A stretch of 64,000 nucleotides of DNA from Thermoproteota archaeon (GCA_027492035.1 JAOZFT010000004.1:512001-576000); one strand, 5' to 3'; positions 47,403 to 63,906 are shown, counted from the stretch's first letter. Translations and numbers: made by a program. The notes: generated by a model from the letters alone, not told the origin.

Positions 47403-47665
47403 TTAGCTTCCTCCTTCCCTTTTTATCTTGGGCAGCAAGAGTGAAAAACATGTTTTGATAAATGGATCTTGGGAAATGTGGGGGCATTTACTTTTGGAAG
47501 TTCAGAAAAACGATAAATCAGTTTTTAACAAAGAAGGAAGAATATGTTAGCTTTGTCAAGGTTAAAATTTTTAACAGTTTTCTCATTCCTTCAACAACAA
47601 GCTCTTCCCTAAAGAAGGAAAGTGAAGATTTTAAATTAATTGTTTAGTGGGAAGAAGAATCCTTC

Positions 47666-50326
47666 CTATGTTTGCTGTAGTTCTCCATATTTATATTTCA
47701 TTTCAGCATGGGCAGCTGCTAACCTAGCTACAGGTATCCGGTAAGGGGATGCACTAACATAATTTAACCCTAGCCTGTGGCAGAACTCTATAGATTTAGG
47801 GTCTCCTCCATGTTCTCCACAAATCCCTATTTCCAGTTTCTTGTTTGCTTTCCTCCCTTTCGTTACAGCTATTCTCATTACTTCACCGACCCCTTTCTCG
47901 TCAAGGGTTTGAAACGGGTTATGTGGCAGAATTCCCTTCTCTAAATAAATGTTCAGGAATCTCCTTTCAGCGTCATCCCTGCTCATGCCCATCACTGTTT
48001 GTGTTAAATCGTTTGTTCCAAAAGAAAAGAAATCTGTTACTTTAGCTATTTCATCAGCCGTTATTGCTGCTCTAGGCATCTCAATCATTGTTCCGTAGGT
48101 GTAATCAACCTCTACCCCCTCTCTCTTAAAAGTTTCCTCAGCTACTCTCTCAACCAGTTTCTTTAGTTCAACTAATTCGTTCTTGTGGATTGTTCCAGGA
48201 ATCATTATGGCAGGTCTAGGGTCTAAACCTTCTTTTTTAAGTTCAGTAGCTGCTTCAAGTATAGCTCTTACTTGTGTCTCATAAATTTCAGGATAAACAA
48301 TTCCCAACCTGCAAACTCTGAAACCCAACATTGGATTAAACTCATACAGGTCCTGAACTTTCTGTAAAAGTTTTCTTTTCTCTTCGAACTTTTTTCCCTT
48401 CCTTCCTTCAGCTTCCATTTTTGTTATTTCAACTAGAAGCTCAGTTAATTCCGGGAGAAATTCATGTAAAGGAGGGTCTAGGAGCCTAATTATTGTCTTC
48501 TTTCCATTAGTTATTCTGAGTATTTCTTTGAAATCTTCCTTCTGTCTAGGTAAAAGCTCGTTCATTAAAACTTTTCTTCTTTTGCTTTCGTTATCTGCAA
48601 GGATTGTTCTTTGGAATATGGGAAGTCTGTCAGCCAAAAACATATGTTCAGTTCTAGCTAAGCCTATTCCTTCAGCTCCTAACTCAACAGCTTTAGCTAT
48701 GTCTTTTGGTAAATCAGCATTAGCATACACTCCTAAAACCCTGATTTCGTCGGCCCATTTAAGGATAATGCCAAGTTCACCTGTTGTTTTAGGTTCAACT
48801 AAAGGAAGCCTACCCAGCATAACTTCCCCTGTTGAACCGTCTAGTGTTAACCAGTCCCCCTTTTTCACAATTAAGCCTCCTACTTGGAAAAGGTTTTGCT
48901 CCGTGTCTATTTTTATTTCTCCGCAACCTACTATACAGGGTTTACCCATTCCTCTAGCTACGACTGCAGCATGACTTGTCATTCCTCCTCTGGCTGTAAG
49001 AACTCCTTGAGCAGCAGCCATACCTCCAACATCTTCAGGAGCTGTTTCAGGTCTTACAAGTATCACAGGCATTTCCTTTCCAAGTTCTTCTGCTTCATCG
49101 GAATCAAAAATCACCTTGCCCACAGCTGCACCTGGAGAAGCGGCTAACCCTTTAGCTATAACTTTTCTTTCAGCTTTTGGGTCTATTTGTTTATGTAAAA
49201 GTTTTTCTATGTCTTCAGGCTTAATTCTAGCTACTGCCTCCTCTTTAGTTATTAGTCCCTCATTAACCATATCTACAGCTATTTTAACAGCTGCCTGGGC
49301 TGTTCTTTTACCTGTCCTGGTCTGCAAAACCCATAATTTCCCGTTTTCAACTGTGAACTCAATATCCTGCATGTCTCTGAAGTGGTTCTCCAATTTTTTA
49401 CATGTTTCAATTACTTCTCTGTACAGTTTAGGCTGTTCCTTTTTCAAGTCCTCTAACTGCAAAGGTGTTCTGATGCCTGCTACCACATCTTCACCTTGAG
49501 CATTAGGCAAGTATTCCCCATAAACTCTGTTTTCTCCTGTTGCAGGATTCCTTGTAAAGGCGACTCCTGTGCCTGAATTCCAACCAATATTCCCAAAAAC
49601 CATTGTAACTATGTTGACAGCTGTACCTAAGTCGTCAGGTATGCCATGTATCCTCCTATACTTTATAGCTCTTTTCCCATTCCAAGACTTGAAAACTGCT
49701 TCAACAGACATCCTTATTTGCTTATAAGGGTTTTGAGGAAATTCAGCACCTGCCTTCTCCTTGATAAGCTGCTTATATTCTTTAATTAATTCTTTTAATG
49801 CTTCAACAGGAAGCTCTGCATCCGTCTTCACTTTGTACTTTTCCTTCTTTTCCTCCAGCAACTTTTCAAATTCCCCTCTCGGCACACCCATTACTATACT
49901 TCCGAACATGGAGAGGAGTCTTCTGTAACTGTCCAAGGCGAATCTTTCATTGGAAAGCTGAGCTAGCCCCTTAACGGTTTCATCATTTAAACCAACATTT
50001 AAGACAGTATCCATCATTCCCGGCATGGAAATTTTAGCTCCCGACCTTACTGAAACCAGCAAAGGGTTGTTTTTGTCCCCAAACCTTTTTCCTGTCTTCT
50101 TTTCCAATTTCCTTATGTGTTCAATTATTACCTGCCAGATTTTGTCAATGAAAGCAGGCCCCTCCCTCATATATCTTACACAAGCTTTAGTAGTTATTGT
50201 GAAGCCTGGAGGAATGGGTAACCCTATCCTCGTCATTTCAGCTAACCCTGCCCCCTTTCCTCCCAATAAATCCTTTAATTTAATGTTTCCCTCTTCAAAA
50301 TCGTAAATGTACTTTCCATCAGTCAT
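47666..50326 (-). CDS. ppdK: pyruvate, phosphate dikinase
   Basis: LLGGKGA.LAEM, SVRSGA..SMPGMMDT, GGMTSHAAVVARG, FSFGTNDLTQ, GICGEHGG. Confidence 0.97.
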   Translation of the reverse strand: MTDGKYIYDFEEGNIKLKDLLGGKGAGLAEMTRIGLPIPPGFTITTKACVRYMREGPAFIDKIWQVIIEHIRKLEKKTGKRFGDKNNPLLVSVRSGAKISMPGMMDTVLNVGLNDETVKGLAQLSNERFALDSYRRLLSMFGSIVMGVPRGEFEKLLEEKKEKYKVKTDAELPVEALKELIKEYKQLIKEKAGAEFPQNPYKQIRMSVEAVFKSWNGKRAIKYRRIHGIPDDLGTAVNIVTMVFGNIGWNSGTGVAFTRNPATGENRVYGEYLPNAQGEDVVAGIRTPLQLEDLKKEQPKLYREVIETCKKLENHFRDMQDIEFTVENGKLWVLQTRTGKRTAQAAVKIAVDMVNEGLITKEEAVARIKPEDIEKLLHKQIDPKAERKVIAKGLAASPGAAVGKVIFDSDEAEELGKEMPVILVRPETAPEDVGGMAAAQGVLTARGGMTSHAAVVARGMGKPCIVGCGEIKIDTEQNLFQVGGLIVKKGDWLTLDGSTGEVMLGRLPLVEPKTTGELGIILKWADEIRVLGVYANADLPKDIAKAVELGAEGIGLARTEHMFLADRLPIFQRTILADNESKRRKVLMNELLPRQKEDFKEILRITNGKKTIIRLLDPPLHEFLPELTELLVEITKMEAEGRKGKKFEEKRKLLQKVQDLYEFNPMLGFRVCRLGIVYPEIYETQVRAILEAATELKKEGLDPRPAIMIPGTIHKNELVELKKLVERVAEETFKREGVEVDYTYGTMIEMPRAAITADEIAKVTDFFSFGTNDLTQTVMGMSRDDAERRFLNIYLEKGILPHNPFQTLDEKGVGEVMRIAVTKGRKANKKLEIGICGEHGGDPKSIEFCHRLGLNYVSASPYRIPVARLAAAHAEMKYKYGELQQT

Positions 50327-50754: not shown

Positions 50755-51840
50755 TTGTTGGTGAGAAATGAGGTGTGGATTCCTCGAGAAATTATTGAGC
50801 GAACATGGATACAGAAAATAGCTGCATCAGCTGTACTCTCCAAATTTTACAATGTCCTAGGTGAAGAAAAGTTTTCAGCTGTCCTTTATGTTACAGGCAG
50901 AGACTGGGGACTTAAACTTTTTAAAGAAAACTTTTTGTCCCCAAACAATTTATCTGAATGGAAAATCCCAATCCCCACCAACGGTTACGAAATAATGAAT
51001 CTCGTCGCTGCCTTTTTACGTAGTACATTCCCAAAGGCTGAAATCTCAATTGAAACAATTGACACACGGAAAATATCTATAATTATTGGAAAAAGTCCTC
51101 TAAGACCCCTTTTAAGAACCCCCCATGCAATCTGTTACCACGTCGCAGGCTTACTTGAATTTATCTTCTCCCAAATACTGGCGAAAACCGGTGTGAAGGC
51201 AAATGTTAAGGTAGATCTAGAATACGTAGCCGCGGAAGGTGGAGAGCCTAAAGCTACCAAATTTATAGTGGAGATTGAAAACCCCTCTAAAGAAATATCT
51301 CTTGAAACTAAGCCTCCTCATGCTGCACGTTCCCCTTTCGCTACTTCTTACAAATTAAAAAAAATTATGTTGTTCGATGAAGCAGTTTTTCTCCTTAATT
51401 CCTTCCTTGAGAAAACAAAAAACATATTGGGTGAAGAGAAATCTTATGAACTCCTTTACTTAGCAGGCCGTTCAGAAGGTAAAAGAACCTTTAAAATTTT
51501 CAGTGAAAAATATGACAGGGAAAAAATTAAACCTTTTGATAACTGGAGGAACGCAGATGAGTTTTTAGAGTCTTTGCTAAGGTACAGATTCGCACCTAAC
51601 TCAATTCCTGCCTCTTACAGAGTTAATGATAAAACTTTTGTTTTAAAACTTCTTATGAACCCCTTCACTCAAGGTGTTAAAACGAAGAAACCTTTTTGCG
51701 GCTTCTTGAAGGGAGCTTTAGAGTCGATGGTTAGCTTAACAGTTGCAAAATATGGCATAGGTAAAGGGGTGTCAGTAGAAGAGATAAAATGTAAAGCCTC
51801 CGGAGACGACCATTGTGAGTTTCAAGTTACGCTTTTGTAA
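50755..51840 (+). CDS. tandem V4R (HNOX/TRAPP-Bet3-like fold) domain protein
   Basis: Two internal repeats (LGEEK...LY..GR..G); C-terminal FCGFLKGALE...VEEIKCKASGDDHCEF V4R signature. Confidence 0.8.
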   Translation: MLVRNEVWIPREIIERTWIQKIAASAVLSKFYNVLGEEKFSAVLYVTGRDWGLKLFKENFLSPNNLSEWKIPIPTNGYEIMNLVAAFLRSTFPKAEISIETIDTRKISIIIGKSPLRPLLRTPHAICYHVAGLLEFIFSQILAKTGVKANVKVDLEYVAAEGGEPKATKFIVEIENPSKEISLETKPPHAARSPFATSYKLKKIMLFDEAVFLLNSFLEKTKNILGEEKSYELLYLAGRSEGKRTFKIFSEKYDREKIKPFDNWRNADEFLESLLRYRFAPNSIPASYRVNDKTFVLKLLMNPFTQGVKTKKPFCGFLKGALESMVSLTVAKYGIGKGVSVEEIKCKASGDDHCEFQVTLL

Positions 51841-52045
51841 ATTTTGTAAATTGTGTCTTGTAGTGTTAGGAAAACACTTAAAGGAAACCTCCTAGAAAAC
51901 TTTTTATGTAAGGAAAAAAATGGAACTTTTAAATACACTGAAATCAAATATAACAAAAGTAAGTACTTATAGTAATTAATTACTTCTCGGAGAGAAATCT
52001 TTTTTAAAAGAAAAACCCTTTTTTATAAGTTTTAAAGGGGTAAGA

Positions 52046-54298
52046 ATGAAACTTTTAATCGGTAAAAAGAAAGATAAAAAGGAAGATAAGGGTATCACTA
52101 AAAAAGCAAAAGAAAGAAAGGAAGGCCTTTCATTAAAGAAACCAGAAAAAACAATCAAAAAGAGAAAACAAATAAAGAAAGGAAGGGAAGAAGGAAAGGA
52201 GAAGAAAAAAGGGTTTCTTAACATTTTTAAAAAGAAGGAAAAAAGGGAGAAACCTAAACCATTGACAGTAAGTTACCCTCCGTCAAATTGGGTAGAAATT
52301 GAAAGACACGTAGTTGACCCCCCTGCTGAAGTAGCTATTTACCTTGACCCAGAAACACAGGAAAAAAAATACTTTGTCCTAGAACCTAAAATGACTCCGC
52401 AAGAAGAAGAAGTCTGCGAATTATTGGCAGATATCTTAAAAAAAGAAATAAAACCTCCGGAGGAAGTTGAAGACAAGAAAAAATACATTTACAGTGAAAC
52501 AGAGCGTTTAATGAAGAAATATAAACTGCATAAAAGGAAAACTGTAAGGAAAGAAATTGTTCAGTACTACATTTTCAGGGACTTGGTAAGTTTCGGGCCT
52601 TTACATGCAATAATGAAAGATGACCAAATCGAGGACATAAGCTGTAACGGGGTGGGAATACCTATTTTTGTTTGGCACAGGAGGCATGAAAGCATGGAAA
52701 CTAACATCACTTTCACAGATGAAAAATACTTGGATGATTACACCATGAAACTTGTACACATGGCTGGTAAACACGTTTCTACAGCTAGACCTGTTGTAGA
52801 TGGAATGCTGGAAGGTAAACATAGAGTTGCAGTGGGTTATAAAAAGGAAGTAACAATGAAAGGGTCAGCCTTCACAATAAGAAAATTCAGGGAAGTTCCT
52901 TTCACTATAACAGACTTGCTGGAACTTGGGACTCTTGATGAATGGATAGCAGCCTATGTTTGGCTTGCATTAGATAACAGAATGCCTCTTTTCGTGGTAG
53001 GCGCCACAGCTGCAGGTAAAACAACTCTACTAAACTGTTTAGCAACCCTTATTAAGCCCTCCTTCAAAATAGTAACAGTTGAAGAAACACCTGAAATAAA
53101 CCTGTTCCATAAAAATTGGCTTCAATTCGCTGTAAGAGAAAAATATGGGGTAAGTGAAGAAAGCGTAGGCGAAGTTTCGCTTTTCGACCTTGTAAAAGCA
53201 ACCTTAAGGCATAGACCTGATTTCTTAATCGTTGGAGAAGTTAGAGGTGAAGAAGCGAGTGTAATGGTTCAAGCAATAGCTACAGGGCACTCTGGCTTAA
53301 CAACTTTCCACGCTGAAGATGTTGACAGTGCAGTTAAACGTTTAACTCAAAGACCCCTGAACATAGCTCCAGCCTACATCCCTCTACTTAAGGTTTTTCT
53401 GATGTTAAGGAGAGTTACTTTACCTGGTACGGACAAGACTGTGAGGAGAATAGTTGAAGTTCATGAGGTTTTAGGTTACGAAGGGGATAAACTTCAAACA
53501 TTCATAGTTTCTAAATGGGATCCTGTCACCGACACATTCAAGCATTCCTTTGAGAAAAGCTACAACCTAAGGAAGATCTCTGAAGAAACAGGGGTGCCTT
53601 TTGCAGCTGTCCTTAAAGAACTTGAAAATAGGGCGTCCTTCCTTCTAATGCTGAAAAAGAAGGGAGTAAAAACCTTTGCCGGTTTAGAGGAAGAGTTAAC
53701 AAAGTATTACGCCGGAAAAATCAAAATTGAAGTTGAGGAGATCAAAGGAATCGAAACAATTGAACCTCAGCCTCCAGAAACAAAGGAAAAATTAGTTAAA
53801 GATTTAGTTACTCCTATAAAGAAAGAAGTATCTAGAAAGATCCCAGAAATAGTTTTCTCGAAACCTAAAGAAACCTTTTTTGATGAAATAACTATTCCAA
53901 AAATTCAGTATCCTCTTAGGGAAGTGGAAGAAGGTACCAAAGAAAAAATCAGTGGAGGACCAGAACAAAGGGGAAGAGTTACTCCACCTTCATCAATAGA
54001 GACAGAACCTAAAGTAAAACTTGAAATGGAAACTGTCCAGAAGCCTGAAGGTAAACTAGAAATAAAAGAAAGTGAAGAACACCTAATACGTAAGAAAATA
54101 CTGGATATTTTAGTTTTAAACAGAGGAAAAGTAACAGTTGAAGAACTAGTTAAACGCTGCGGAGAAAAAAATATTTTCTACGTTCTTGACAAAATGAAGG
54201 ATGAAGGGTTAGTTTCGACTGATGTAGCTATTGTTTCAGGAACCCCTATTTTCTACTACATCCTAACCTTAAAAGGAAGAAAAGCTGCTTTCGAGTGA
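52046..54298 (+). CDS. type IV pilus/type II secretion assembly ATPase (TadA/ArlI-like) with C-terminal winged-helix extension
   Basis: IEDISCNG, FTIRKFR, Walker A GATAAGKTT, VEETPE, RHRPDFLIVGEVRG, TGH...TTFHA. Confidence 0.93.
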   Translation: MKLLIGKKKDKKEDKGITKKAKERKEGLSLKKPEKTIKKRKQIKKGREEGKEKKKGFLNIFKKKEKREKPKPLTVSYPPSNWVEIERHVVDPPAEVAIYLDPETQEKKYFVLEPKMTPQEEEVCELLADILKKEIKPPEEVEDKKKYIYSETERLMKKYKLHKRKTVRKEIVQYYIFRDLVSFGPLHAIMKDDQIEDISCNGVGIPIFVWHRRHESMETNITFTDEKYLDDYTMKLVHMAGKHVSTARPVVDGMLEGKHRVAVGYKKEVTMKGSAFTIRKFREVPFTITDLLELGTLDEWIAAYVWLALDNRMPLFVVGATAAGKTTLLNCLATLIKPSFKIVTVEETPEINLFHKNWLQFAVREKYGVSEESVGEVSLFDLVKATLRHRPDFLIVGEVRGEEASVMVQAIATGHSGLTTFHAEDVDSAVKRLTQRPLNIAPAYIPLLKVFLMLRRVTLPGTDKTVRRIVEVHEVLGYEGDKLQTFIVSKWDPVTDTFKHSFEKSYNLRKISEETGVPFAAVLKELENRASFLLMLKKKGVKTFAGLEEELTKYYAGKIKIEVEEIKGIETIEPQPPETKEKLVKDLVTPIKKEVSRKIPEIVFSKPKETFFDEITIPKIQYPLREVEEGTKEKISGGPEQRGRVTPPSSIETEPKVKLEMETVQKPEGKLEIKESEEHLIRKKILDILVLNRGKVTVEELVKRCGEKNIFYVLDKMKDEGLVSTDVAIVSGTPIFYYILTLKGRKAAFE

Positions 54299-54316
54299 AG
54301 AAGGTGCGGAAAGAAG

Positions 54317-56236
54317 GTGAAAAGGGGAATTCAATCCACTCAAACAATAAAACTTAGTTTTTTTGATAAATTGATTTCCTTTTCATTCTCTAACTTTGAA
54401 AAAATTGGTTTTTACCTATACAAAATCTTTAAACCTGTAGGGGAAAAAATGGAACTGGCGCAAATAAAAATATACCCCCCAGCCTATTTCTCATTTAGTT
54501 TTTTTGTATGTTTAGTTCTTTTCCTTGTTCTTCTGGCTTTCTCCACAATTCTGAATCTTGAAATTTACCATGTTCTCAATTTCCCCTTCTTCCATTTAAT
54601 TTTTAATTTCTTAGGTAAACCTGTATCAACCTACCAGTTTGTTGTCGTTTTCAGAGATAACCCTATCCTAAACCTGCTTTTCCTTAAACTTTTTTTCATC
54701 TTCCCTCTTCTGCTTTTCGTTATTTTCTTGGTTATTCCTGACATAAGACTTTCTATGTGGACTGAAGGATTAGAAACTGAAACTCCTTTCATTGGAACCT
54801 TTGTTTCTGTTATGGCTACTGGCGGAATAAGTCCCTATCACGCAATAAAGGCATTTGCTACAAATAAGATCCTTCCAACATTCTCCTTAATTGCCCAAAG
54901 AATAATAACTCTTGTTTCTGTTTTTGGAAAAGACCCTTTAACGGCTATCGAGGAGACAAGTAGGTACATTCCCTCAAGGGATCTGAAAGAATTGTTGACA
55001 GGTTATGTAACCTCTGTGAGGACAGGTGGAGATTTTGTACATTTCCTTTTTGTGAAAACTGAAACATTGTTCAGAGACCGGATAGTTAAGATGAGGCAAA
55101 TAGGGGAAAAAATGGGCATGTTAATGGAAGTCTTCATAGCCTTAACCATCCTTTTATCACTAGGATTATACGCAATATATATTGTGAACACAGCTTTACC
55201 TGAAACCTCGACCCCTTTCATGTCAGGAACCTCTTTCTTTGTCTTTGCATTCCTTTTCACTCCCTTCTTGTCAATGGTTTTTATTTACCTTATAGACCTC
55301 TTTGTGCCAAAGTACCCACATCCAGACTGGTCAATTTTAAAAGTTGGGATTATTTCGTTCATTATCTCCTCAATAATTTTCTTCACCTTCTTTATTGTTC
55401 CAGCTTTAAATCCATTACTCCTTTCAATCCCCTTCATAGGAAAAATCAATTCTATGTTTGACAAATTTATTTTCTCTTTGGGTTTCAGTTCTGGAGCTAG
55501 AACTCCGCTAATACTGGCTTTCTGGATAATTTTAGGCTCAGTTCCACCTGCAATTTTGGAAATTAAAAGAAGCAGAGAAGAAAGGGATGTAGAAGATAAT
55601 TTAGCCCTATTTCTAAGGGACTTGGTGGAAGCTAGAAAGGCAGGATTATCCCCTGAAAAATGCATAATTCAGTTAAAAGATAGAGATTATGGCTTCTTTT
55701 CGAAAAGGTTAAAGGTAATAGCTAATCAGTTGTCTTGGGGTGTCCCCCTACGAGAAATTTATCGTTACTTTGCTTCCACCACACGAACATGGCTCTCAAA
55801 AATGTTAGTGTTTCTACTTGTTGAAGCAATAGATTACGGGGGAGGATCAGTGAAAACCCTTGAAAGCTTGGCTATGTACAGTGAAATGATGAAAAGCGTC
55901 CAAAAAGAGAAAGAAGGAAACTTAAAACCTTTATTGATAGTTGTTTACTTAGGAACACTAATACTTGTTGTTGCAGTTATTCTTCTGCTCAGTTTCGTAA
56001 ATGTTTCATTGAAAATAGCAGGTTCAGGAGTTGCTTATGAATCCTTCCTTTCAAAGTTTGTTTCACCAATAATTATAAACGTTGCACTTTCAGGTTTAAT
56101 TGCAGGCAAAATTTCTTCAGGTTCAGTATCCACAGGGTTTAAACACATAGTTGCCTTGACTACGATTACCGTATTGGCACTGTGGTTAACTCCAATGATA
56201 TCCTCCATATTGGCTGCTTCATCAATCCCCCACTAA
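54317..56236 (+). CDS. type IV pilus membrane platform protein (fused TadB/TadC, ArlJ-like)
   Basis: Two T2SSF-like repeats (MATGGISP...GKDPLTA; FLRDLVEARKAGLSPE...YGGG) with multiple TMs. Confidence 0.9.
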   Translation: MKRGIQSTQTIKLSFFDKLISFSFSNFEKIGFYLYKIFKPVGEKMELAQIKIYPPAYFSFSFFVCLVLFLVLLAFSTILNLEIYHVLNFPFFHLIFNFLGKPVSTYQFVVVFRDNPILNLLFLKLFFIFPLLLFVIFLVIPDIRLSMWTEGLETETPFIGTFVSVMATGGISPYHAIKAFATNKILPTFSLIAQRIITLVSVFGKDPLTAIEETSRYIPSRDLKELLTGYVTSVRTGGDFVHFLFVKTETLFRDRIVKMRQIGEKMGMLMEVFIALTILLSLGLYAIYIVNTALPETSTPFMSGTSFFVFAFLFTPFLSMVFIYLIDLFVPKYPHPDWSILKVGIISFIISSIIFFTFFIVPALNPLLLSIPFIGKINSMFDKFIFSLGFSSGARTPLILAFWIILGSVPPAILEIKRSREERDVEDNLALFLRDLVEARKAGLSPEKCIIQLKDRDYGFFSKRLKVIANQLSWGVPLREIYRYFASTTRTWLSKMLVFLLVEAIDYGGGSVKTLESLAMYSEMMKSVQKEKEGNLKPLLIVVYLGTLILVVAVILLLSFVNVSLKIAGSGVAYESFLSKFVSPIIINVALSGLIAGKISSGSVSTGFKHIVALTTITVLALWLTPMISSILAASSIPH

Positions 56237-56267
56237 AAAAATTGTTTTAAAATAAGGTGTAAAAATT

Positions 56268-57185
56268 TTGGTTCGGTTGAAAGATTTTTTAAGGGTGAAC
56301 AGAAAGGAAGGAATGAAGGGAATATCACCAGTCATATCAATAGCAATCATAACCTTCTTTATACTTGGAGCCATTCTTATGGCTTACTACTTCATAAACA
56401 ACCTTGTACTCCTTAATGAAGGAGAGAAAGAGTTTAAGTTAGCGGAAGCCTCCATGATAAACTTTGCAAGAGACGTTGAAAGTGTAGCGTGGAACCTACA
56501 CTCCACCCAAAGTTCACAGTTCATACCGAAATATGGGTATCTACAGGTTTTAACTAATATATACAAGTTCAAGGTATTTGTTAATTACTCTTCAAGCCCT
56601 GACGAAATAGTAACTGATGCTGCACTTTTCCGCATGCCTGTTAGAAAATACACTAGGGGAAACAATTACCTCCAAAACCTCTATCCAGCAGCAAGTAAAC
56701 CGGAACCCATAAACTTCACAACTGAAAACATAAACGATCCCTTCATGAGGGTTTTCTCAGTTGAGAAACTACAGTACACAGACACAATAGATACAGTAAC
56801 TGTCCCAAGGGTTAAAATAATTAAGGAAGTATTTAAGTCACAAAACAGAAACATTACAAGGATTTGGGTGAAAATAATTAAACTTAAAAAATCCAGTTAC
56901 CCGGGAAAACCTCAACCAAACTACTTAGTTGCAACTTGCATAAACACTTCAGCTAAAGTTTATTCTTACCAAGTTAACTTGACGCAACTTCAAGCACTAA
57001 ACCTAAGAATCGAAATTGAACCACTGAACTTGCCCAACGACTATTTACAATTTAGAACCACTCCCTACAGTTTAAACATAAGAGACTTCCTGTTTAACGA
57101 ATTTTGTGGGGGTTATGCCTGCAGCGCCTGTACAGATGTTGAAATAATTATCGATGTAGCTGAAGTGGAGGTTAGGGTGTTTTAG
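56268..57185 (+). CDS. pilin-like protein with class III signal peptide
   Basis: RKEGMKG/ISPVISIAII cleavage site plus hydrophobic helix; many N-x-S/T sequons. Confidence 0.8.
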   Translation: MVRLKDFLRVNRKEGMKGISPVISIAIITFFILGAILMAYYFINNLVLLNEGEKEFKLAEASMINFARDVESVAWNLHSTQSSQFIPKYGYLQVLTNIYKFKVFVNYSSSPDEIVTDAALFRMPVRKYTRGNNYLQNLYPAASKPEPINFTTENINDPFMRVFSVEKLQYTDTIDTVTVPRVKIIKEVFKSQNRNITRIWVKIIKLKKSSYPGKPQPNYLVATCINTSAKVYSYQVNLTQLQALNLRIEIEPLNLPNDYLQFRTTPYSLNIRDFLFNEFCGGYACSACTDVEIIIDVAEVEVRVF

Positions 57186-57204
57186 ATGAAGGTGTTTTTA
57201 AGAA

Positions 57205-57699
57205 ATGCCAGCAGTAACTATTAGTCGTGTAATATTGTTTGCTGCAATGATAGCCTTAACTCTTTTCATGTTTTACAGAGCCCTGGTTTACCAAGGTTAC
57301 TATAGAGCCCAGACGTTCAGGGAATCAGCTAAAACAGTAGCGTATTTGATAGCTAACCAAATACAGCAGCTTTACGTTCTAGCTCAAAGCCCTGAAATAG
57401 AGAATGAAACAACTATACAGAAAATTTTAGATAAGCCAAACTCAATAGGTCTAAAACCATACAATTTATCTTTCATTTTAGAGGAGTATGTTAAAGGGGG
57501 AGAAACCCATAAAATAATAGAGGTTAAAGTTGTTTCTGGAAGAAACGCTACTGCATTGGTTCCTGTTGGAGATGATGTTGAACTACAACCCTCTTCGGTA
57601 ACTCTTCCCGGGTATAGACCAGTGACAGCTAATTGTTACAAAGAATTATTTGTTAACGGCTCAACAAATTATGTCTTTTCATTTACTGGGGGTGGTTGA
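57205..57699 (+). CDS. pilin-like protein (no obvious basic leader)
   Basis: N-terminal hydrophobic helix then an amphipathic helix; operon position. Confidence 0.65.
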   Translation: MPAVTISRVILFAAMIALTLFMFYRALVYQGYYRAQTFRESAKTVAYLIANQIQQLYVLAQSPEIENETTIQKILDKPNSIGLKPYNLSFILEEYVKGGETHKIIEVKVVSGRNATALVPVGDDVELQPSSVTLPGYRPVTANCYKELFVNGSTNYVFSFTGGG

Positions 57700-58907
57700 A
57701 AGAAATGCCTTTTTCAGCAAGTATAGATTACGTTTTAGCAACTGTTATTTTGATGCTGATTATTTACCCCTTCCTAATGATTTCAATGGATAATGTAATG
57801 ATGCGTACAGTTAAAGTGAACAGTAAAGTTTCACTTTACCAAGAAGCAAACATTTTCCTTGATAACATGCTCCTATCCTACGGTTCACCAATAAACTGGT
57901 ACTTAAGCCAGAATCACAGCTTCAGTTACCCTATAGCTTTCGGTTTAGCTAAAACAAATGCTTCAAGCTACATATTAAGCCCTTTCAAAACAATGAGAAT
58001 AACACCTACTCAGCAAGTTGACTTAACAGGTCAACCAAGCGGTTTAGGAGTTGTTGAAGCCCTTTTTTACGACCCAACCACAAATTTTACATGTGTAGCC
58101 CCCACTTACTACTATGTACCGTACAGCTTTGTTTTAAACAATACAGGACTTGAAAATGCAGGTTTCAAGCTTGTTTTCACTCCTTTATTAGAAGTTTATA
58201 TGTTAACGCCTCAAGTAAGTGGAGGAAACATAATTTTCCCCCTTAAAATCACTAATGATAACGAACCGGTTCCAGAAGCCTCAATTAAAGGTTTCCTTTT
58301 CTATTTAAAAGACGAAAATGCTTCAATTTACCATAAATTTAACACCTCCCAAACAAATTATAAAGGGGAAGCATTCCTCACCTTCAACTATTTGCCACCT
58401 AAAGAATACCTCCTCCTAGTTGCGGTTTTAAGCGGTGATGAAGCAAACTACTGGTACTATTACCAAAGAGATTCCAACCTTTCATTTATTCAAACAGAAA
58501 TAGAAACCAGTAACCAAATCAAAGTTGTTAACAACAGAGGCCAAAACCTCAACTTCACAGTAATGCAGGTTTTGATTTCTAAAGATTCCCCTAAAGCATT
58601 TGTCCCCAGTACAATCGTTGAAAATGAGGAATTGGTAAGTGGGGATGGAGAAACAGTGAATTTAACTATTTCACAATCATATCTCTTATTAGCTGCAAAG
58701 GAGCTCAGTGGAGAAAAGGAAGGACACATTTACCTCCTCCCTTTTGGGCTGTTTGCAGGCGAAATCAAGCAGACACCACAAAGAACAGAATACCCCTATG
58801 GTGGAAACATATTACAGAGCCTAGAAACAATTACAGCCCAAAGAAACATAAGGGTGGGCGATATATCCTATAGAGTGAATTTTTACTTTTGGCCCCTAAG
58901 CAGGTGA
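57696..58907 (+). CDS. minor pilin-like protein
   Basis: SIDYVLATVILM N-helix, LLSYGSPINW and FGLA motifs as in archaeal T4P-locus minor components. Confidence 0.7.
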   Translation: MKEMPFSASIDYVLATVILMLIIYPFLMISMDNVMMRTVKVNSKVSLYQEANIFLDNMLLSYGSPINWYLSQNHSFSYPIAFGLAKTNASSYILSPFKTMRITPTQQVDLTGQPSGLGVVEALFYDPTTNFTCVAPTYYYVPYSFVLNNTGLENAGFKLVFTPLLEVYMLTPQVSGGNIIFPLKITNDNEPVPEASIKGFLFYLKDENASIYHKFNTSQTNYKGEAFLTFNYLPPKEYLLLVAVLSGDEANYWYYYQRDSNLSFIQTEIETSNQIKVVNNRGQNLNFTVMQVLISKDSPKAFVPSTIVENEELVSGDGETVNLTISQSYLLLAAKELSGEKEGHIYLLPFGLFAGEIKQTPQRTEYPYGGNILQSLETITAQRNIRVGDISYRVNFYFWPLSR

Positions 58908-58916
58908 AGGAGAGAA

Positions 58917-60296
58917 ATGAAGAAAAACTTCAAGGAAATTTTCAAGAAAAGGAAAGGATGGCTTAGAACATTTGAACTCATATTGGCAGTGCCTATTGTA
59001 GCCTTTATAGTCTTATTTGCCGCCTACCTGGCACCAACCCCTTCACCTCAACAATACACTACGGTTCAACTTAAAGGGTTCGCCCTCAGCACACTTTCAA
59101 AATTAAACCAAAGAGGATACTTAACCCACGCAGTATATAATGAAGATTGGTTAGGATTAAAAAAGGAACTAGACACCTCCTTCCCTCCAAACATAATATA
59201 TAACTTCACAGTTTACAGGTACCAAGAAATAAATAAAACAGTGAGGCTTGGAGAAAAAATTAAAGAAGTGAGACTTGTAAAGGTAGGGCAAATCACCAAC
59301 TTTAAGGGTGTAAATAAACCTAAATGGGCTGAATCAGTGAATTACCATGTGTCAACCGCCCAAGTCACCTTCACGGTTGAGACGCAGAAATTAAACAAAA
59401 CAATTTATTTACTAGGTTGCACAGATGCTCCAGGATGGTGGATAACCGGTTATACTCCACACTCTTTAGCAATCCTAATGAAAAATTACTTAGACCCCTA
59501 CTTCACAAACGTGACAATAATAAATGACACAGATCAACTTGAAAACCTGTTTTTAAACCCACCAAACGGAACAATAATTATTAACTGCCACGGAGTAGCT
59601 GTGCCAATTCCTTCAAACTATGTTTCAGGAAATCTTCCAAACTGGCAAAGCTATATGCAAGATATTCGTGCAGGGATCATAAACCATAATTGGACATGGA
59701 TGAACATAGTAGGTTACCCATTCACCTATGTTTCAAACAGAAACTATGATAACTGTAACGACTGGGTTTGTGTCTGGGGGTGGATTGTTCAGCTTCTTAC
59801 AGGAGGAGATATTAGTGGTGAATGGGACTGTCAGTGCTGGACTTGGTGGGGAGTAACCGGGTTGTACGGTATAGGTCCCCCAGGATTAAGTATAGTAGTG
59901 ACCGGTTCATCCTCAACAGATAGCAGAATAAGTGACATAGGGGTTGTTAATGCAACCCAACTTGGTTTAGAGACAATGAACACTTACGGTATCCAGTACT
60001 CTCCTAACCAGTCCTTTTCAAGAGCTCTTGACCGTTCATGGATGGAAAGCAATGGTTGGCAGGTTCAACTTGAAACCTTTGAAGAAAGAAACGGTTATTG
60101 TTCAGCTGCGGTTTTCAACAGAAGCAACAGCAGCGGAAAACTAATAAACATCGGGTTATCAAGGCCTCCAGAACCAAGGGTTCCAGTTGTTACATTGCTT
60201 GCTTTAACCCATCCTAAACTTGAGCAAAGGATAGCTTCCATTGAGCAAGATTTAAGAGTTATTGTTTTGCAACTTACATATATTAGTGGTGGTTAA
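58917..60296 (+). CDS. minor pilin-like protein with class III signal peptide
   Basis: KKRKG/WLRTFELILA site; Cys/Trp-rich internal segment. Confidence 0.72.
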   Translation: MKKNFKEIFKKRKGWLRTFELILAVPIVAFIVLFAAYLAPTPSPQQYTTVQLKGFALSTLSKLNQRGYLTHAVYNEDWLGLKKELDTSFPPNIIYNFTVYRYQEINKTVRLGEKIKEVRLVKVGQITNFKGVNKPKWAESVNYHVSTAQVTFTVETQKLNKTIYLLGCTDAPGWWITGYTPHSLAILMKNYLDPYFTNVTIINDTDQLENLFLNPPNGTIIINCHGVAVPIPSNYVSGNLPNWQSYMQDIRAGIINHNWTWMNIVGYPFTYVSNRNYDNCNDWVCVWGWIVQLLTGGDISGEWDCQCWTWWGVTGLYGIGPPGLSIVVTGSSSTDSRISDIGVVNATQLGLETMNTYGIQYSPNQSFSRALDRSWMESNGWQVQLETFEERNGYCSAAVFNRSNSSGKLINIGLSRPPEPRVPVVTLLALTHPKLEQRIASIEQDLRVIVLQLTYISGG

Positions 60297-60302
60297 AGGA
60301 AT

Positions 60303-62444
60303 ATGTTAAAGAAAAAATCTGTGCTAAAAAATGTAAAAAGGCTGCAGCATAAAATATTCAGTAGGAAAGCGCAAGTTTACATGTTAGGAATAATTCTTAT
60401 GGCATTGTTCCTCTTATCGACAGCTTTATTCCTTTATGTTAACACTTTAAGCCAAAGAGAAAGCTACTACGTCTACAGCGAAAATTTTGCTTCGTTAACC
60501 CAGTCAGTTAAAGAAGCTATTGAGAAAGTTGTTGCAGGAGCACTGGCGACGTACACAACCATTTTAGATGTTTCAGGGAACTCTTCCTTTGCAAGAATAA
60601 AGGCTGAAGAAGTTTTAAATGCGGGAATAAGGGTGCTCACGTCTTCCTTCTCCAATTACGGTCTTGAATTAAAGTATGAACCAGTAAACTGCTCTTTAGC
60701 AGATGAGGAACATCCTTACAGAAAAATAACCAGTGACGAAGTTTTTAAGGCCTACTGGTTCTACCCTGACAGTATTTCAGGTGTAGGAATAAGGTTTAGT
60801 TTTAATCTAACTGAAGTAGGGCTGTATAATTACAAAGTTTCAGGCCACGGCTCAGCATATTTTTCATTAAAAGTTAAGGTTCTGGAATCGAAAAGAAACA
60901 TTGTAAAAATATCGGTTACTGGAGAGGGGAATGTACCGGTTCTTAACCTGGATGAAACCATGATAAAATTATTTATCTATAACGGCTCAGTAAGAGAATG
61001 GGTGGAGGAAACACCGGAAATAGTTACAATTTTCCAAAACGGAACTTACATTCTTAACCATACAATACCTCCAAACTTCCATTTACCAACTATAAGTGGC
61101 GGGGTTGTACCAATAGCTTTAAAGGTTAGAGATCACAGGGGAGTAATAGTTAACGCTTTCGCTGTTCCAAGTTACACATACTCCCTTAGCATTAACCAGC
61201 CATACAATGGAAGAGACCCAAGTAAGGCTGTTTATGAAGTAGAGGTGCAAAATGATGGTGTGTGGCGTTTCTTGGGTCAAGAACTTGAATCCAGTAACTG
61301 CGACTACGGCCCAGTTCCGCCCTTGCCTGTGAGGTTGTTAAGAGTAAACGCCTCAAATGAAGTTATTCCTTTCCAAGTTGAGGACTGGAACAGCAACTTA
61401 ACAATTCCTTTAGGGTTATCTAACCCACATACTCATTTCCAAAAATCTAATAAGTTAGTGTTTCTCCTCAATTCAACTTTCAACACCGTAAAAATTTGGT
61501 GGAGTGACGACATGGACGCTGAACAAATAATAAACAAAACAGACCTGCAATATGACCCTGCAACGCGTTGGCACAGCAACACCTACTACAAAGGAAGAAT
61601 GGAAAAGTTGACAGTGCTTGGTTTTGATTTCCCAATTCCTCAATTAGCTCTTCAACATGCAGGGCATGAAGATGAATACATATTTGGAACTATAAACTCT
61701 CTCCCTCCATTCGGCTGGGCATCTTATTCAGACCCTGTCACTAACTGCCAAGCAAGGAACATGCTTTCGGTAGAAATGGAGTATCAATGGCAAACTTTAT
61801 TCTCATCTACACCTGATACATATGTTTTACTCATTGTTACTTTTCCAGCGCATGCAAAATACGCAACTTTCACGCTTCACTTAATAACTGATCGAGTGAC
61901 AGCTAAATCCATTTCTAACTTTGAAGTTTTGCGGTCATATAGAACATTTGCCCATTTCGCGGTTCAAGCGCATGATGATAACCAGTTCCAAGGATGTGGC
62001 TGTCTCCTTTGCCCTCCTCCCTACAAATTCTGTAATGATACTTCATGCAATATACACTGCTGTTGCCTCTGGTTTATAAGGTGCCTAGAATGGTGTGACT
62101 ACAATCAAGACAATGGTGAACATCATTGGTTAGCTCGATGGAATGACGATTTTGGTACAGGTTTAATGCTTACAACTAAAAATCTTGAACAACTCTATAA
62201 CTTCAGTTCAAGGGGGGGCATAATAATTGGTTTACTTAACGCATTATACTTAAAACCTGTCGACAATACTTTACTTTCCTCCTGCACTACAGGAAATTGG
62301 GTTTTAAGTGCTAATGGAAAATACGAAGTTTACACTTGGCAAGGGTTAATATGGATTTATGGAGGGGGCAGTTACCAAGAAATAGAGGATTACAGTGTAA
62401 TGGTGAGGGAGCCGCCAGAAATCTTAAGCATTTCTTCAACCTAA
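60303..62444 (+). CDS. large pilin/adhesin-like protein with class III signal peptide and Cys-rich insert
   Basis: SRKA/QVYMLGIILM site; IPFQVEDW motif; 10-Cys segment. Confidence 0.72.
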   Translation: MLKKKSVLKNVKRLQHKIFSRKAQVYMLGIILMALFLLSTALFLYVNTLSQRESYYVYSENFASLTQSVKEAIEKVVAGALATYTTILDVSGNSSFARIKAEEVLNAGIRVLTSSFSNYGLELKYEPVNCSLADEEHPYRKITSDEVFKAYWFYPDSISGVGIRFSFNLTEVGLYNYKVSGHGSAYFSLKVKVLESKRNIVKISVTGEGNVPVLNLDETMIKLFIYNGSVREWVEETPEIVTIFQNGTYILNHTIPPNFHLPTISGGVVPIALKVRDHRGVIVNAFAVPSYTYSLSINQPYNGRDPSKAVYEVEVQNDGVWRFLGQELESSNCDYGPVPPLPVRLLRVNASNEVIPFQVEDWNSNLTIPLGLSNPHTHFQKSNKLVFLLNSTFNTVKIWWSDDMDAEQIINKTDLQYDPATRWHSNTYYKGRMEKLTVLGFDFPIPQLALQHAGHEDEYIFGTINSLPPFGWASYSDPVTNCQARNMLSVEMEYQWQTLFSSTPDTYVLLIVTFPAHAKYATFTLHLITDRVTAKSISNFEVLRSYRTFAHFAVQAHDDNQFQGCGCLLCPPPYKFCNDTSCNIHCCCLWFIRCLEWCDYNQDNGEHHWLARWNDDFGTGLMLTTKNLEQLYNFSSRGGIIIGLLNALYLKPVDNTLLSSCTTGNWVLSANGKYEVYTWQGLIWIYGGGSYQEIEDYSVMVREPPEILSISST

Positions 62445-62916: not shown

Positions 62917-63906
62917 ATGTACATGAAAAACTTTGAAAAGTTAAGGGTATTATTTAGTTATTTATCTGCTAAAATCTATGGGAGAAAAGTTTGTGCTTCT
63001 CACGTTAAGGATGTTGACGGAATAGTTAGTGCCTCCATTCTTTACTCTAAATTTAAAAACCCAATTATTTTCCTTTTAGAAACTTATGAAGTTGGGGACC
63101 GGTTTCTTAACTTGTTGAAATGGGACGTAGTTGTTGATTTGCCTCCTTTTAAAAAAATGAAGTTTTACGTTGATCATCATGCCTCCAATTCCCTTTTCAA
63201 AGCTGAAAAATCAGTTTATAACCCTTCAGCTAAATGTGCAGCTGAACTTTTGTTTGAGGCATTGAAGCCTCTGTCTCATGAAGAAATATTGAGGGAAGCT
63301 GTTGAATTAGCTAAGAGAACTGACAGTGCAAGTTACTTGTCAGATCCGCCATTAATTGACACTGTTAATGATTACGATGAAGCGTGGGATTTAAACGATG
63401 CAGTGAAGGGTTTAAACAAAGAAGAAAGGCTTGATTTAGCTAAAAAAATTGTCTCTGAAGGATTAAAAGCTTTAAATGATGAAAAAATTCAGGAAGCAAT
63501 AAGGAAAGTTAGAAAAGTGAGAACTAGAACTTACAGCTTCGCTGAACAAATTCCTTCCTCGGAATTCCTTATCTTAACCTCTAAAAACACCTTTTCCGAA
63601 GAAAAAATCTCTTTTTCAGCAATTCCCTTCATCCTTTTCAAGAAAGGGGTTAAAGTTGTTCTTATTTGTAGTCTCAATAAAGGAAACGGGAAAGTTAAGT
63701 GTTCAATCAATAGGCAACCCTGTTTTAAAGGGGTTTCAGTTAGAGGTTTCGCTGAAAAACATGGGGGAGGTGGACATGACGCTGCAAGCGGTTTCATGAC
63801 TTCTCTTCCACTAGAAAAAATAATTGAAGATGCTTTTAAATGGGCTGAACAGAAAAAACTAAAAACTAAACATGTAAATTTAAACACGCTTTATCCTAAA
63901 AATTAA
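62917..63906 (+). CDS. DHH/DHHA1 family phosphoesterase
   Basis: H..DVDG..SA, VVDL, VDHH, GGGGHDAASG. Confidence 0.9.
   Translation: MYMKNFEKLRVLFSYLSAKIYGRKVCASHVKDVDGIVSASILYSKFKNPIIFLLETYEVGDRFLNLLKWDVVVDLPPFKKMKFYVDHHASNSLFKAEKSVYNPSAKCAAELLFEALKPLSHEEILREAVELAKRTDSASYLSDPPLIDTVNDYDEAWDLNDAVKGLNKEERLDLAKKIVSEGLKALNDEKIQEAIRKVRKVRTRTYSFAEQIPSSEFLILTSKNTFSEEKISFSAIPFILFKKGVKVVLICSLNKGNGKVKCSINRQPCFKGVSVRGFAEKHGGGGHDAASGFMTSLPLEKIIEDAFKWAEQKKLKTKHVNLNTLYPKN

Follow-up and report, generated by a model that had tools for sequence, protein, structure and literature searches.

Eight co-oriented genes occupy positions 50755 to 62444 of a 64,000-nucleotide stretch of DNA from a Thermoproteota archaeon (GCA_027492035.1, JAOZFT010000004.1:512001-576000), referred to below as the window, which belongs to a 1.87-Mb genome assembled in 42 contigs at 93% completeness. 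They encode a V4R-like protein, an assembly ATPase, a FlaJ/TadC-type platform protein and five pilin-like proteins (Table 1). An earlier reading of the DNA by itself (the sequence-only reading) had assigned these genes to an unusual type IV pilus-like system, and the eight open reading frames (ORFs) are indeed all present, all on the + strand. From the ATPase gene onward, consecutive genes are spaced by 18, 31, 19, -4, 9 and 6 bp, and the ATPase, platform and five pilin-like genes have the look of a co-transcribed set. On account of the 205-bp AT-rich spacer that separates it from the ATPase gene, the V4R-like gene looks like a separate transcription unit.

Table 1. Genes and other features of the filament locus, in window coordinates
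Feature	Position	Strand	Basis
ATPase gene	52046..54298	+	750 aa ORF
FlaJ/TadC platform gene	54317..56236	+	639 aa ORF, two T2SSF domains
Minor-pilin-like protein 1	56268..57185	+	305 aa ORF
Minor-pilin-like protein 2	57205..57699	+	164 aa ORF
Minor-pilin-like protein 3	57696..58907	+	403 aa ORF as listed
Minor-pilin-like protein 4	58917..60296	+	459 aa ORF
Large pilin-like adhesin candidate	60303..62444	+	713 aa ORF
Winged helix-turn-helix domain of ATPase	54068..54295	+	aa 675-750; AlphaFold2 and Foldseek
Cys-rich insert of 713-aa protein	61995..62096	+	10 Cys within aa 565-598
V4R-like gene	50755..51840	+	361 aa ORF
Intergenic region upstream of ATPase operon	51841..52045	+	sequence read

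The core of this cluster is a widely conserved and apparently unnamed operon, whose machinery is of a known general kind. A word-based search with the 713-aa protein returned 11 clusters only and understates the family; a scan of a genome collection seeded with the motif [VI]PFQVEDW, which is invariant in the alignment, yielded 87 relatives, and 80 loci were kept (L020, identical to a contig of the sister-genus genome G001, being counted once). The window proteins were mapped on the ORFs of these loci by iterative hidden Markov model searches. The carriers are nearly all Bathyarchaeia, with a few Marsarchaeota and metagenome-assembled genomes labelled Thermoprotei, and the common order is ATPase (~545 aa), platform (~568 aa), and then the families of the 305-aa (~285 aa), 164-aa (~160 aa), 403-aa (~405 aa), 459-aa (~440 aa) and 713-aa proteins, a block that is often followed by a ~147-aa canonical pilin and a peptidase. 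Of these loci, 58 include 7.4 kb or more of DNA before the 713-family gene, and in 56 of the 58 all seven genes stand in this order; the other two retain the five pilin-like genes, with a platform gene on the opposite strand. Across the full set of 80, which includes many short contigs, the seven genes are found in 60, the five pilin-like genes in 67, the peptidase in 62 and the small pilin in 45.

Close to home, the seven genes recur in the sister genus G001, with identities of 42-67%. G026, of another family of the same phylum, has the five-gene cassette alone on one contig (C14), while a second contig (C6) carries the ATPase, the platform, a 145-aa pilin, a MinD-like ATPase and a HEPN-like protein. 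The 459-aa family was found in only 3 genomes of the window's 43-genome phylum. The five pilin-like genes behave as one inherited module, and across Bathyarchaeia, Marsarchaeota and this lineage the seven genes are passed on together; the notion of a one-off combination, which the sequence-only reading had entertained, does not survive the conserved order of the seven genes. The lineage-specific features are the winged-helix tail of the ATPase, the V4R neighbour, the Cys-rich insert of the 713-aa protein and a displacement of the peptidase and pilin genes by ~9 kb.

Some loci hold additional genes of related character. In G001 the main set is directly followed by a second and smaller one, again of five pilin-like genes (285, 191, 333, 170 and 293 aa, in the same order; L015 13433-17270), and a similar run of short pilin-like genes is found upstream of the main set in a Marsarchaeota locus (L061 1125-2529). 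The MinD/ParA-like gene of G026 (L017 10993-11874, - strand), recognized by eye from its GKGGTGKT motif, lies between the small pilin and HEPN-like genes.

The machinery can be assembled from the genome as a whole. The platform protein has multiple hydrophobic segments and matches T2SSF at 72.4 bits in two stretches of one ORF; its matches to UpsF (70.6 bits, cut-off 400), BasF (57 bits, cut-off 1300) and ArlJ are weak and far below the cut-offs. A single gene with two T2SSF domains is the ordinary form of the archaeal FlaJ/TadC protein, and the "fused TadBC" that had been singled out as unusual is therefore normal. The window platform is the only T2SSF-bearing ORF of the genome, there is one strong match to the ATPase, and no match to archaellin (PF01917) is found in the 93%-complete genome, the control search being positive in 4 archaeal genomes. 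On these three grounds, the cluster is the genome's only type IV filament machine. A weak ATPase match, confined to the P-loop region, is made by a 653-aa ORF elsewhere (G000:C38:28063-28635; G000 is the window's genome; 25% identity, E 4.6e-7).

The sequence-only reading had remarked on the lack of a prepilin peptidase and of a small canonical pilin, and had proposed a search for both elsewhere. They are indeed missing from the window but are found on the same contig, ~9.4-11.7 kb downstream, where the genes for the peptidase and for two small PilA-like pilins are located. The class III prepilin peptidase (G000:C9:583833-584663; Peptidase_A24, 40.6 bits; Arc_PepC_II, 83 bits) is placed 9.4 kb past the last pilin-like gene, outside the window, and is followed by genes for a 160-aa pilin-like protein, a 194-aa HEPN-like protein (on the opposite strand) and a 144-aa canonical pilin. 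The N-terminus of the latter, KKG/ISPVIATVIIVAVAIAIAIA (the slash marks the predicted class III cleavage site), is accompanied by full-length alignment, at 25-28% identity, with the small pilin that adjoins the peptidase in Bathyarchaeia loci, the signal [KRN][GA][IL][ST]P being present in 41 of 44 members of this small pilin family; the Pfam Pilin_N match is sub-threshold (16.6 bits vs 25.2). Judged by sequence, an archaeal type IV filament would thus have its usual parts: a FlaI/PilB-type ATPase, a FlaJ/TadC platform, a peptidase and a class III pilin, the last two encoded outside the window.

Two other genes are found in this downstream segment. Directly upstream of the peptidase lies a 161-aa ORF that by eye looks like an Lrp/AsnC-type regulator (L019 9293-9778; G000:C9 ~583292-583777). 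The 194-aa HEPN-like protein (G000:C9:585385-585969, - strand; L019 11386-11970) has a helical N-terminal part, in which RNSCLH supplies an R-x4-H motif but Pfam HEPN is matched only at E 0.045, and ends in two membrane helices. It has homologues in G001 (L015 2190-2774, 56% identity) and G026 (L017 10386-10985), and its gene adjoins pilus genes in all three genomes, in a different position each time; it was not found in the other 79 loci.

The 750-aa ATPase is composed of a Lys-rich N-terminal extension (aa 1-80), a core (aa ~85-556), a K/E/P-rich linker that is modelled as disordered (aa ~561-674) and a C-terminal winged helix (aa ~675-750). Its Pfam T2SSE match is 109.8 bits, and the nearest solved structure is 2oap (317 bits, compared with 261 bits for the Sulfolobus FlaI 4ii7). 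The core resembles the Archaeoglobus fulgidus secretion ATPase GspE (2OAP/2OAQ; query 85-556 on chain 31-498), a 511-aa chain that lacks the Lys-rich extension, the linker and the winged helix. Neither of the NCBIfam models for FlaI (375 bits, cut-off 550) and BasE (247 bits, cut-off 1000) reaches its cut-off. An exhaustive HMMER search with the ATPase collected 21,173 relatives; in an NCBIfam scan of 44 ATPases (41 from the top 150 relatives and three from related loci), none reached the FlaI cut-off, the scores ranging from 305 to 456 bits. PilB3_N or PilB3_C domains are matched by several of the 14 top-150 relatives scanned with Pfam (P0089, 41.9 bits; P0148, 31.3 bits) and, weakly, by the orthologues of G001 (E 0.0078) and Bathyarchaeum (E 0.0022); the window's own ATPase has no PilB3_C match at E <= 0.01. 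These signals point to membership of a non-archaellar, PilB3-like group. The non-archaellar assignment of the sequence-only reading holds good, and an archaellum is rejected, on the FlaI score and on the missing archaellin.

In a FastTree phylogeny of 159 core domains (midpoint-rooted, with no labelled reference clades), the window ATPase groups with those of G001, G002 and G026 (support 99), and the adjoining group is a monophyletic set of 52 Bathyarchaeia-type operon ATPases (support 100). Inteins (Intein_splicing and LAGLIDADG_3) follow the Walker region in several of the closest ATPase relatives, for example P0015 and P0018.

That a winged helix is fused to the ATPase had been proposed from the sequence, and modelling upholds it. 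In the AlphaFold2 model (from a 3-sequence alignment) the last ~75 residues have pLDDT values of 90-96 and the topology H-b-H-H-b-b-H, and the ~110 residues before them have pLDDT values below 50. The best Foldseek matches are the PadR-family structures 5zi8_B (E 2.3e-4) and 3elk_A (E 3.0e-4), with MarR-like proteins also matched; sequence models stay below threshold (Pfam PadR, 18.2 bits vs 27). As a predicted fold, the PadR/MarR-like winged helix at the end of the ATPase is genuine. It resembles PadR/MarR regulators (Rv3488, 5ZI8; TA0346, 3ELK; LmrR) with E values of 2.3e-4 to 1e-3 and TM scores on the target of 0.57-0.72. It differs from them in being fused, through a disordered linker, to a membrane-associated motor, and presumably also in not possessing the C-terminal dimerisation helix region of PadR proteins.

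What the tail does is less straightforward. Its net charge is near zero (13 K+R vs 12 D+E), and DNA binding is putative; a conserved DNA-binding role is not evident since the pI of such tails varies from 4.8 to 10.1 across related ATPases, and docking of a partner is as plausible as DNA binding. Among operon-linked ATPases, 52 of 53 are 532-588 aa long, and the long form is confined to the sister genus G001. The tail is also present on the G002 ATPase and absent from that of G026, the sister of G002. By eye, winged-helix-like ends recur on five of the nearest database representatives outside the operon set (P0013, P0015, P0016, P0018 and P0092), with Pfam support for P0013 only (weak HTH_IclR and HxlR matches); P0078 ends in helix-hairpin-helix repeats (HHH_5, 77.6 bits) and P0052 in double zinc ribbons (Zn_ribbon_3, 39 bits). 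Winged-helix fusion is rare, yet recurrent, among neighbouring ATPases.

For the five proteins encoded downstream of the platform, Pfam and NCBIfam give no match at E <= 0.01. All have a single hydrophobic helix at the N-terminus, and the N-glycosylation sequons that had already been noted in the sequence outnumber those of composition shuffles about twofold in every one (5 vs 2.6, 4 vs 1.0, 9 vs 4.2, 11 vs 4.6 and 12 vs 6.7 for the 305-, 164-, 403-, 459- and 713-aa proteins, respectively); the single helix and the enrichment in sequons suggest that the five are extracellular in character. A class III-type signal is carried by only three of them: the motif [KR][GA] occurs in the 305-aa (KG/ISPVIS), 459-aa (KRKG/WLRTFE) and 713-aa (RKA/QVYML) proteins, but the 164- and 403-aa proteins have almost no leader.

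These distinctions run through the families. The 305-aa protein has a canonical class III signal peptide (..KG/ISPVISIAII..), and its orthologues keep the same operon position in 65 loci, in 49 of which the signal satisfies a strict pattern; four more have variants, and most of the others are truncated by the ORF caller. The N-terminus of the family profile weakly matches archaeal pilin structures (9myg_A, E 0.048; 8gi2_A, E 0.056). In the 713-aa family, the signal [KR]x[GA][QE][FMY] is found in 69 of 78 members. The hydrophobic helix of the 164-aa protein (residues 1-29) begins at residue 1, and 53 of 66 family members begin M-x3-[TS][IVLM][ES][YR] (in short form M-x3-T-I-E-Y). In the 403-aa family, 57 of 67 members have [ST][IV]D[HY] close to the N-terminus, and in 53 it follows a Met by four residues. 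The listed start of the window's 403-aa protein is a TTG at 57696 that overlaps the preceding stop by 4 bp; comparison with the family (M-x3/4-S-I-D-Y) indicates that the true start is probably the ATG at 57705. A weak DUF7287 match is made by 5 of 31 members of this family, and a profile search of the Protein Data Bank returned nothing below E 0.5.

Conservation among the five is highest in the 459-aa protein, which has 17 Trp and 7 Cys and matches Bathyarchaeia orthologues with phmmer E values as low as 6e-56. Its leader reads KRKG/W here, and most relatives start M(M)RT[IV]E; R[TVI][IVLF]E is found in 66 of 69 family members, directly after Met in 61. All 48 of its database relatives are unnamed or hypothetical and without a Pfam domain, and ESM Atlas, queried with this protein and one homologue, gave only unnamed Bathyarchaeota hypothetical clusters and no structure model. 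The 164-, 403- and 459-aa families share a helix that begins almost at the start and an acidic residue 5-7 positions from the N-terminus (TIEY, TIDH, RTIE). Bacterial pilins carry Glu5, which this residue recalls.

The possibility that the five are recent paralogues was tried and rejected: hhalign comparisons of the 305- and 403-, 164- and 305-, and 305- and 713-aa families gave probabilities of 1-5%, with nothing common beyond the N-terminal helix. Because profile-profile comparison finds nothing else that is shared, the five genes represent five different families. Complex prediction, run with alignments for the 305-, 164- and 403-aa proteins and with the 164-aa one taken as partner, gave scores of 0.12 and 0.11 against a mark of 0.32 (no controls), which counts neither for nor against binding.

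The 713-aa protein, which carries its own class III-type leader, was modelled with AlphaFold2 from 33 sequences (mean pLDDT 72.4, pTM 0.70) as a helix (residues 21-115) followed by beta domains. Residues 288-713 match the PL26 rhamnogalacturonan lyase 5xq3_B (VIA-align: Z 17.1, 303 residues aligned, rmsd 4.5), GH38 alpha-mannosidases (Z 15-16), aldose epimerases and the YidC periplasmic domain; Foldseek agrees (GH38 5kbp_B, E 2.3e-6). The model places the C-terminal part in the galactose-mutarotase-like supersandwich class, which is possibly a glycan-binding module and is not read as an enzyme. Members of the family range in length from 594 to 1852 aa; 8 of 33 have an F5/8 type C (discoidin-type lectin) domain, and 7 of 33 weakly match DUF7261, which, like DUF7287, we take to be a family of haloarchaeal pilus loci. 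Variation in length together with acquired lectin domains is a pattern typical of a distal, target-specific component, and the fold and the lectin domains agree with the sequence-only reading, in which the large pilin-like proteins were adhesin or tip components. The same reading had made Cys-rich tips a feature of the system. None of the 8 aligned homologues has the Cys-rich insert (modelled at pLDDT below 50), not even the sister-genus protein with its 51% identity; on this alignment, the insert is unique to the genome of the window.

These facts can be combined into a picture, to which moderate confidence can be given, of a type IV filament for adhesion, with a module of five minor pilins as both its primer and its tip. 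The peptidase would process the proteins with [KR][GA] leaders. By analogy with GspH-K and with FimU-PilVWXE and PilY1, the five proteins would nucleate assembly on the platform as a priming or tip complex, with the variable 713-aa protein outermost and capable of binding glycans through its supersandwich domain. The ATPase would then polymerise the 144-aa pilin beneath the tip complex, and the resulting filament would attach to polymeric or cell-surface carbohydrates. The winged helix on its disordered linker would be a lineage-restricted regulatory add-on, acting through DNA binding or through partner docking.

Several considerations weigh against this picture. Apart from the N-terminal helix, profile searches find no similarity of the five proteins to known pilins or to each other; a peptidase site is not recognisable in the 164- and 403-aa proteins of the window, nor in most relatives from the 164-, 403- and 459-aa families; the mutual binding of the five proteins is part of the model only, inferred by analogy; and a supersandwich fold is no proof of sugar binding. 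The main counter-evidence comes from Bathyarchaeum tardum, the one cultivated strain of Bathyarchaeia: its genome carries the operon (locus L025), yet electron microscopy revealed neither pili nor other appendages (PMC10477458).

It is on account of this last observation that a short, envelope-confined pseudopilus or bindosome-like structure, which would expose, secrete or hold substrate-capturing proteins in the manner of a type II secretion system, stays the principal rival of the adhesive filament, although one culture condition under which pili were absent is weak evidence. The complement of one small pilin and several minor pilin-like proteins mirrors GspG and GspH-K, and the 713-aa protein has a supersandwich similar to non-catalytic domains found in glycan-degrading enzymes; it has also been proposed that adaptation to substrate scavenging is widespread among archaeal type IV machineries (PMC13705601, main text). 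However, no class III substrate-binding protein or ABC transporter genes lie beside the operon, a crude genome scan found few other class III candidates, and the BasE and BasF scores fall far below their cut-offs. On this balance the pseudopilus is unlikely, if a contender to be taken seriously.

The sequence-only reading had made the V4R-like protein part of the system, and with it a ligand sensor. The 361-aa protein is a tandem: its C-terminal half is a true V4R domain with three Cys (45 bits vs a Pfam cut-off of 31, within residues 302-359 only), and its N-terminal half is a degenerate repeat with one Cys and no Pfam match, recognized by BLAST against the sister-genus homologue. In G001 that homologue (36-37% identity) is also in the vicinity of pilus genes, but it follows the second pilin set and does not precede the ATPase. 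Beyond this, synteny fails: a V4R homologue stands beside pilus genes in 1 of 80 loci and 1 of 5 related genomes, the other 79 loci being without it; a search of G002 (71% complete) with this query was negative, though the G002 ATPase has the tail; and the rest of the 43-genome phylum yields nothing beyond weak single-domain matches. Linkage in two close genera may reflect a functional tie or, equally, inherited gene order. The V4R protein is a neighbour of the pilus operon and would at most be a family-specific regulator. The genome also has a second, single-domain V4R gene (G000:C10:23592-24035, - strand; 188-aa ORF), 30% identical to the C-terminal half of the window protein.

The spacer between the V4R-like and ATPase genes contains AAAAGTAAGTAC(N2)ATAG at about 51955-51974 and an AT-rich, TATA-like stretch near 52016-52026. 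The same 12-mer AAAAGTAAGTAC, followed by N1-ATAG, lies upstream of the 144-aa pilin gene (G000:C9 ~586081-586100); the 10-mer AAGTAAGTAC occurs 7 times in the 1.87-Mb genome, counting both strands. The shared AAAAGTAAGTAC..ATAG could be a common promoter or operator element or could be chance, and is offered as a lead only. A scan for bacterial-type promoters and terminators, which is unsuited to archaeal promoters, gave counts at the level of shuffled sequence (33 vs 30.5 and 8 vs 11.7).

These elements can be combined with the filament in a single scheme, quite unlikely to hold as a whole, in which an operon of seven to nine genes would define an uncatalogued filament class typical of Bathyarchaeia: its five-protein module, three of whose pilin-like members are essentially leaderless and have a Glu5-like acidic residue, would form a pseudopilus-like tip or primer that presents a glycan-binding supersandwich adhesin, and the winged helix would couple assembly to transcription of the ATPase operon and the major pilin through AAAAGTAAGTAC..ATAG, possibly under V4R control. 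Taken by itself, the proposal of a novel ligand-controlled apparatus, in which V4R as a small-molecule sensor and the ATPase tail as a DNA-binding domain control assembly or transcription, is decidedly improbable. The C-terminal V4R domain is genuine and keeps its three Cys, its homologues adjoin pilus genes in both genera of the family (in differing positions), the winged helix is real, and an operator-like 12-mer is common to the upstream regions of the ATPase operon and the 144-aa pilin gene; against this stand the absence of V4R from nearly all loci and its apparent absence from the tail-bearing G002, its separate transcription unit, a linkage shared by close kin only and perhaps inherited, the spread of tail pI, which is a misfit with a conserved DNA-binding role, and the recurrence of the shared 10-mer in the genome. 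A filament for DNA uptake or exchange, akin to competence pili or to Ups/Ced, with the motor tail handling DNA, is hardly credible: ends of nucleic-acid-binding type do recur on close ATPases (winged-helix-like, HHH_5, zinc ribbons) and the HEPN-like membrane protein adjoins pilin genes in three genomes, but a cytoplasmic domain of an assembly ATPase cannot reach external DNA, the conserved operon contains no DNA translocase, nuclease or recombination genes, the operon ATPases of the Bathyarchaeia majority are tail-less, and the charge of the tail is not conserved.

The genes on either side of the locus (window 45765-50326 and 62917-63906) are ordinary metabolism genes: they include a xylulokinase-like FGGY kinase and a pyruvate phosphate dikinase (1328 bits, - strand), with a DHH/DHHA1 phosphoesterase downstream.

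Bathyarchaeia are among the most abundant archaea of anoxic sediments, and to our knowledge, almost nothing has been established about their cell surface. A conserved operon with a variable, lectin-like distal protein is a candidate for the means by which they attach to polymeric substrates or to partner cells. Neither Pfam nor NCBIfam has a name for the five families or for the ATPase tail, and hundreds of genomes would be better annotated if these were defined. A pilus motor that ends in a winged helix is architecturally rare, and such tails might link filament assembly to gene regulation.

A specific description of the operon was not found in the main texts of two censuses of archaeal type IV systems (Makarova et al. 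2016, PMC4858521; Sivabalasarma & Albers 2026, PMC13705601) or in the literature searched, as far as its accessible portions go. The words wHTH, winged and V4R are absent from those main texts, in which Bathyarchaeota appear only under Aap-like systems and subsystem 4A. In the records retrieved on V4R together with archaeal type IV pili, no link between the two was found; the phrase "winged helix" is absent among the matches listed for PilB-type ATPases in archaea; and papers on type IV pili and pilins of Bathyarchaeia contain, by title and abstract, nothing on this operon.

Set beside systems that have been characterized, the cluster shares its common core (a FlaI-family ATPase, a FlaJ/TadC platform, class III pilins and a PibD/EppA-type peptidase) with the Aap, Ups and Bas systems of Sulfolobales and the Epd system of Methanococcus. 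The Sulfolobales systems have simple PilA-type pilin sets, unlike the five-protein module, and the window proteins score far below the Bas and Ups cut-offs (BasE 246.7/1000, BasF 57/1300, UpsF 70.6/400). Bacterial GspH-I-J-K and FimU-PilV-W-X-E with PilY1 are similar in plan, since they too comprise about five pilin-like proteins encoded in fixed order beside the motor, one of them large and adhesin-like; the likeness would be one of analogy, for profile searches find no relationship of sequence or fold between bacterial minor pilins and the five families. In contrast with the bacterial sets, the large 713-aa protein has its own pilin-like helix and three families are virtually leaderless. PilY1, which carries a beta-propeller, is not among the matches listed in structure searches with the 713-aa protein, an absence that does not exclude the family. 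Epd loci, with at least five minor pilins as their census main text describes them (PMC4858521), recall the five-protein module; System 1, to which Epd belongs, has two platform genes in the main-text account (PMC13705601), whereas both T2SSF domains are here in one ORF.

The best fit, by comparison of descriptions, is with System 2, or ATPase clade 2, which takes in the PilB3-PilC3 and PilB4 locus types of Haloferax volcanii (PMC4858521, PMC13705601, main texts). System 2 is described there (PMC13705601) as having one platform gene, ATPases with extra N- or C-terminal regions, large adhesin-like proteins and pilins with and without the class III motif, and the platform, ATPase-extension, pilin and adhesin features are all shared by the cluster. 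Its hosts, as described, are mainly euryarchaeal, unlike the Bathyarchaeia, Marsarchaeota and the lineage considered here. Judged by the refuting condition that the sequence-only reading had set, only the core genes would map onto a described clade, the winged-helix tail and the Cys insert do not, and the V4R gene is not syntenic beyond the sister genus. The MinD-like ATPase gene of the related G026 locus is a further likeness to System 2.

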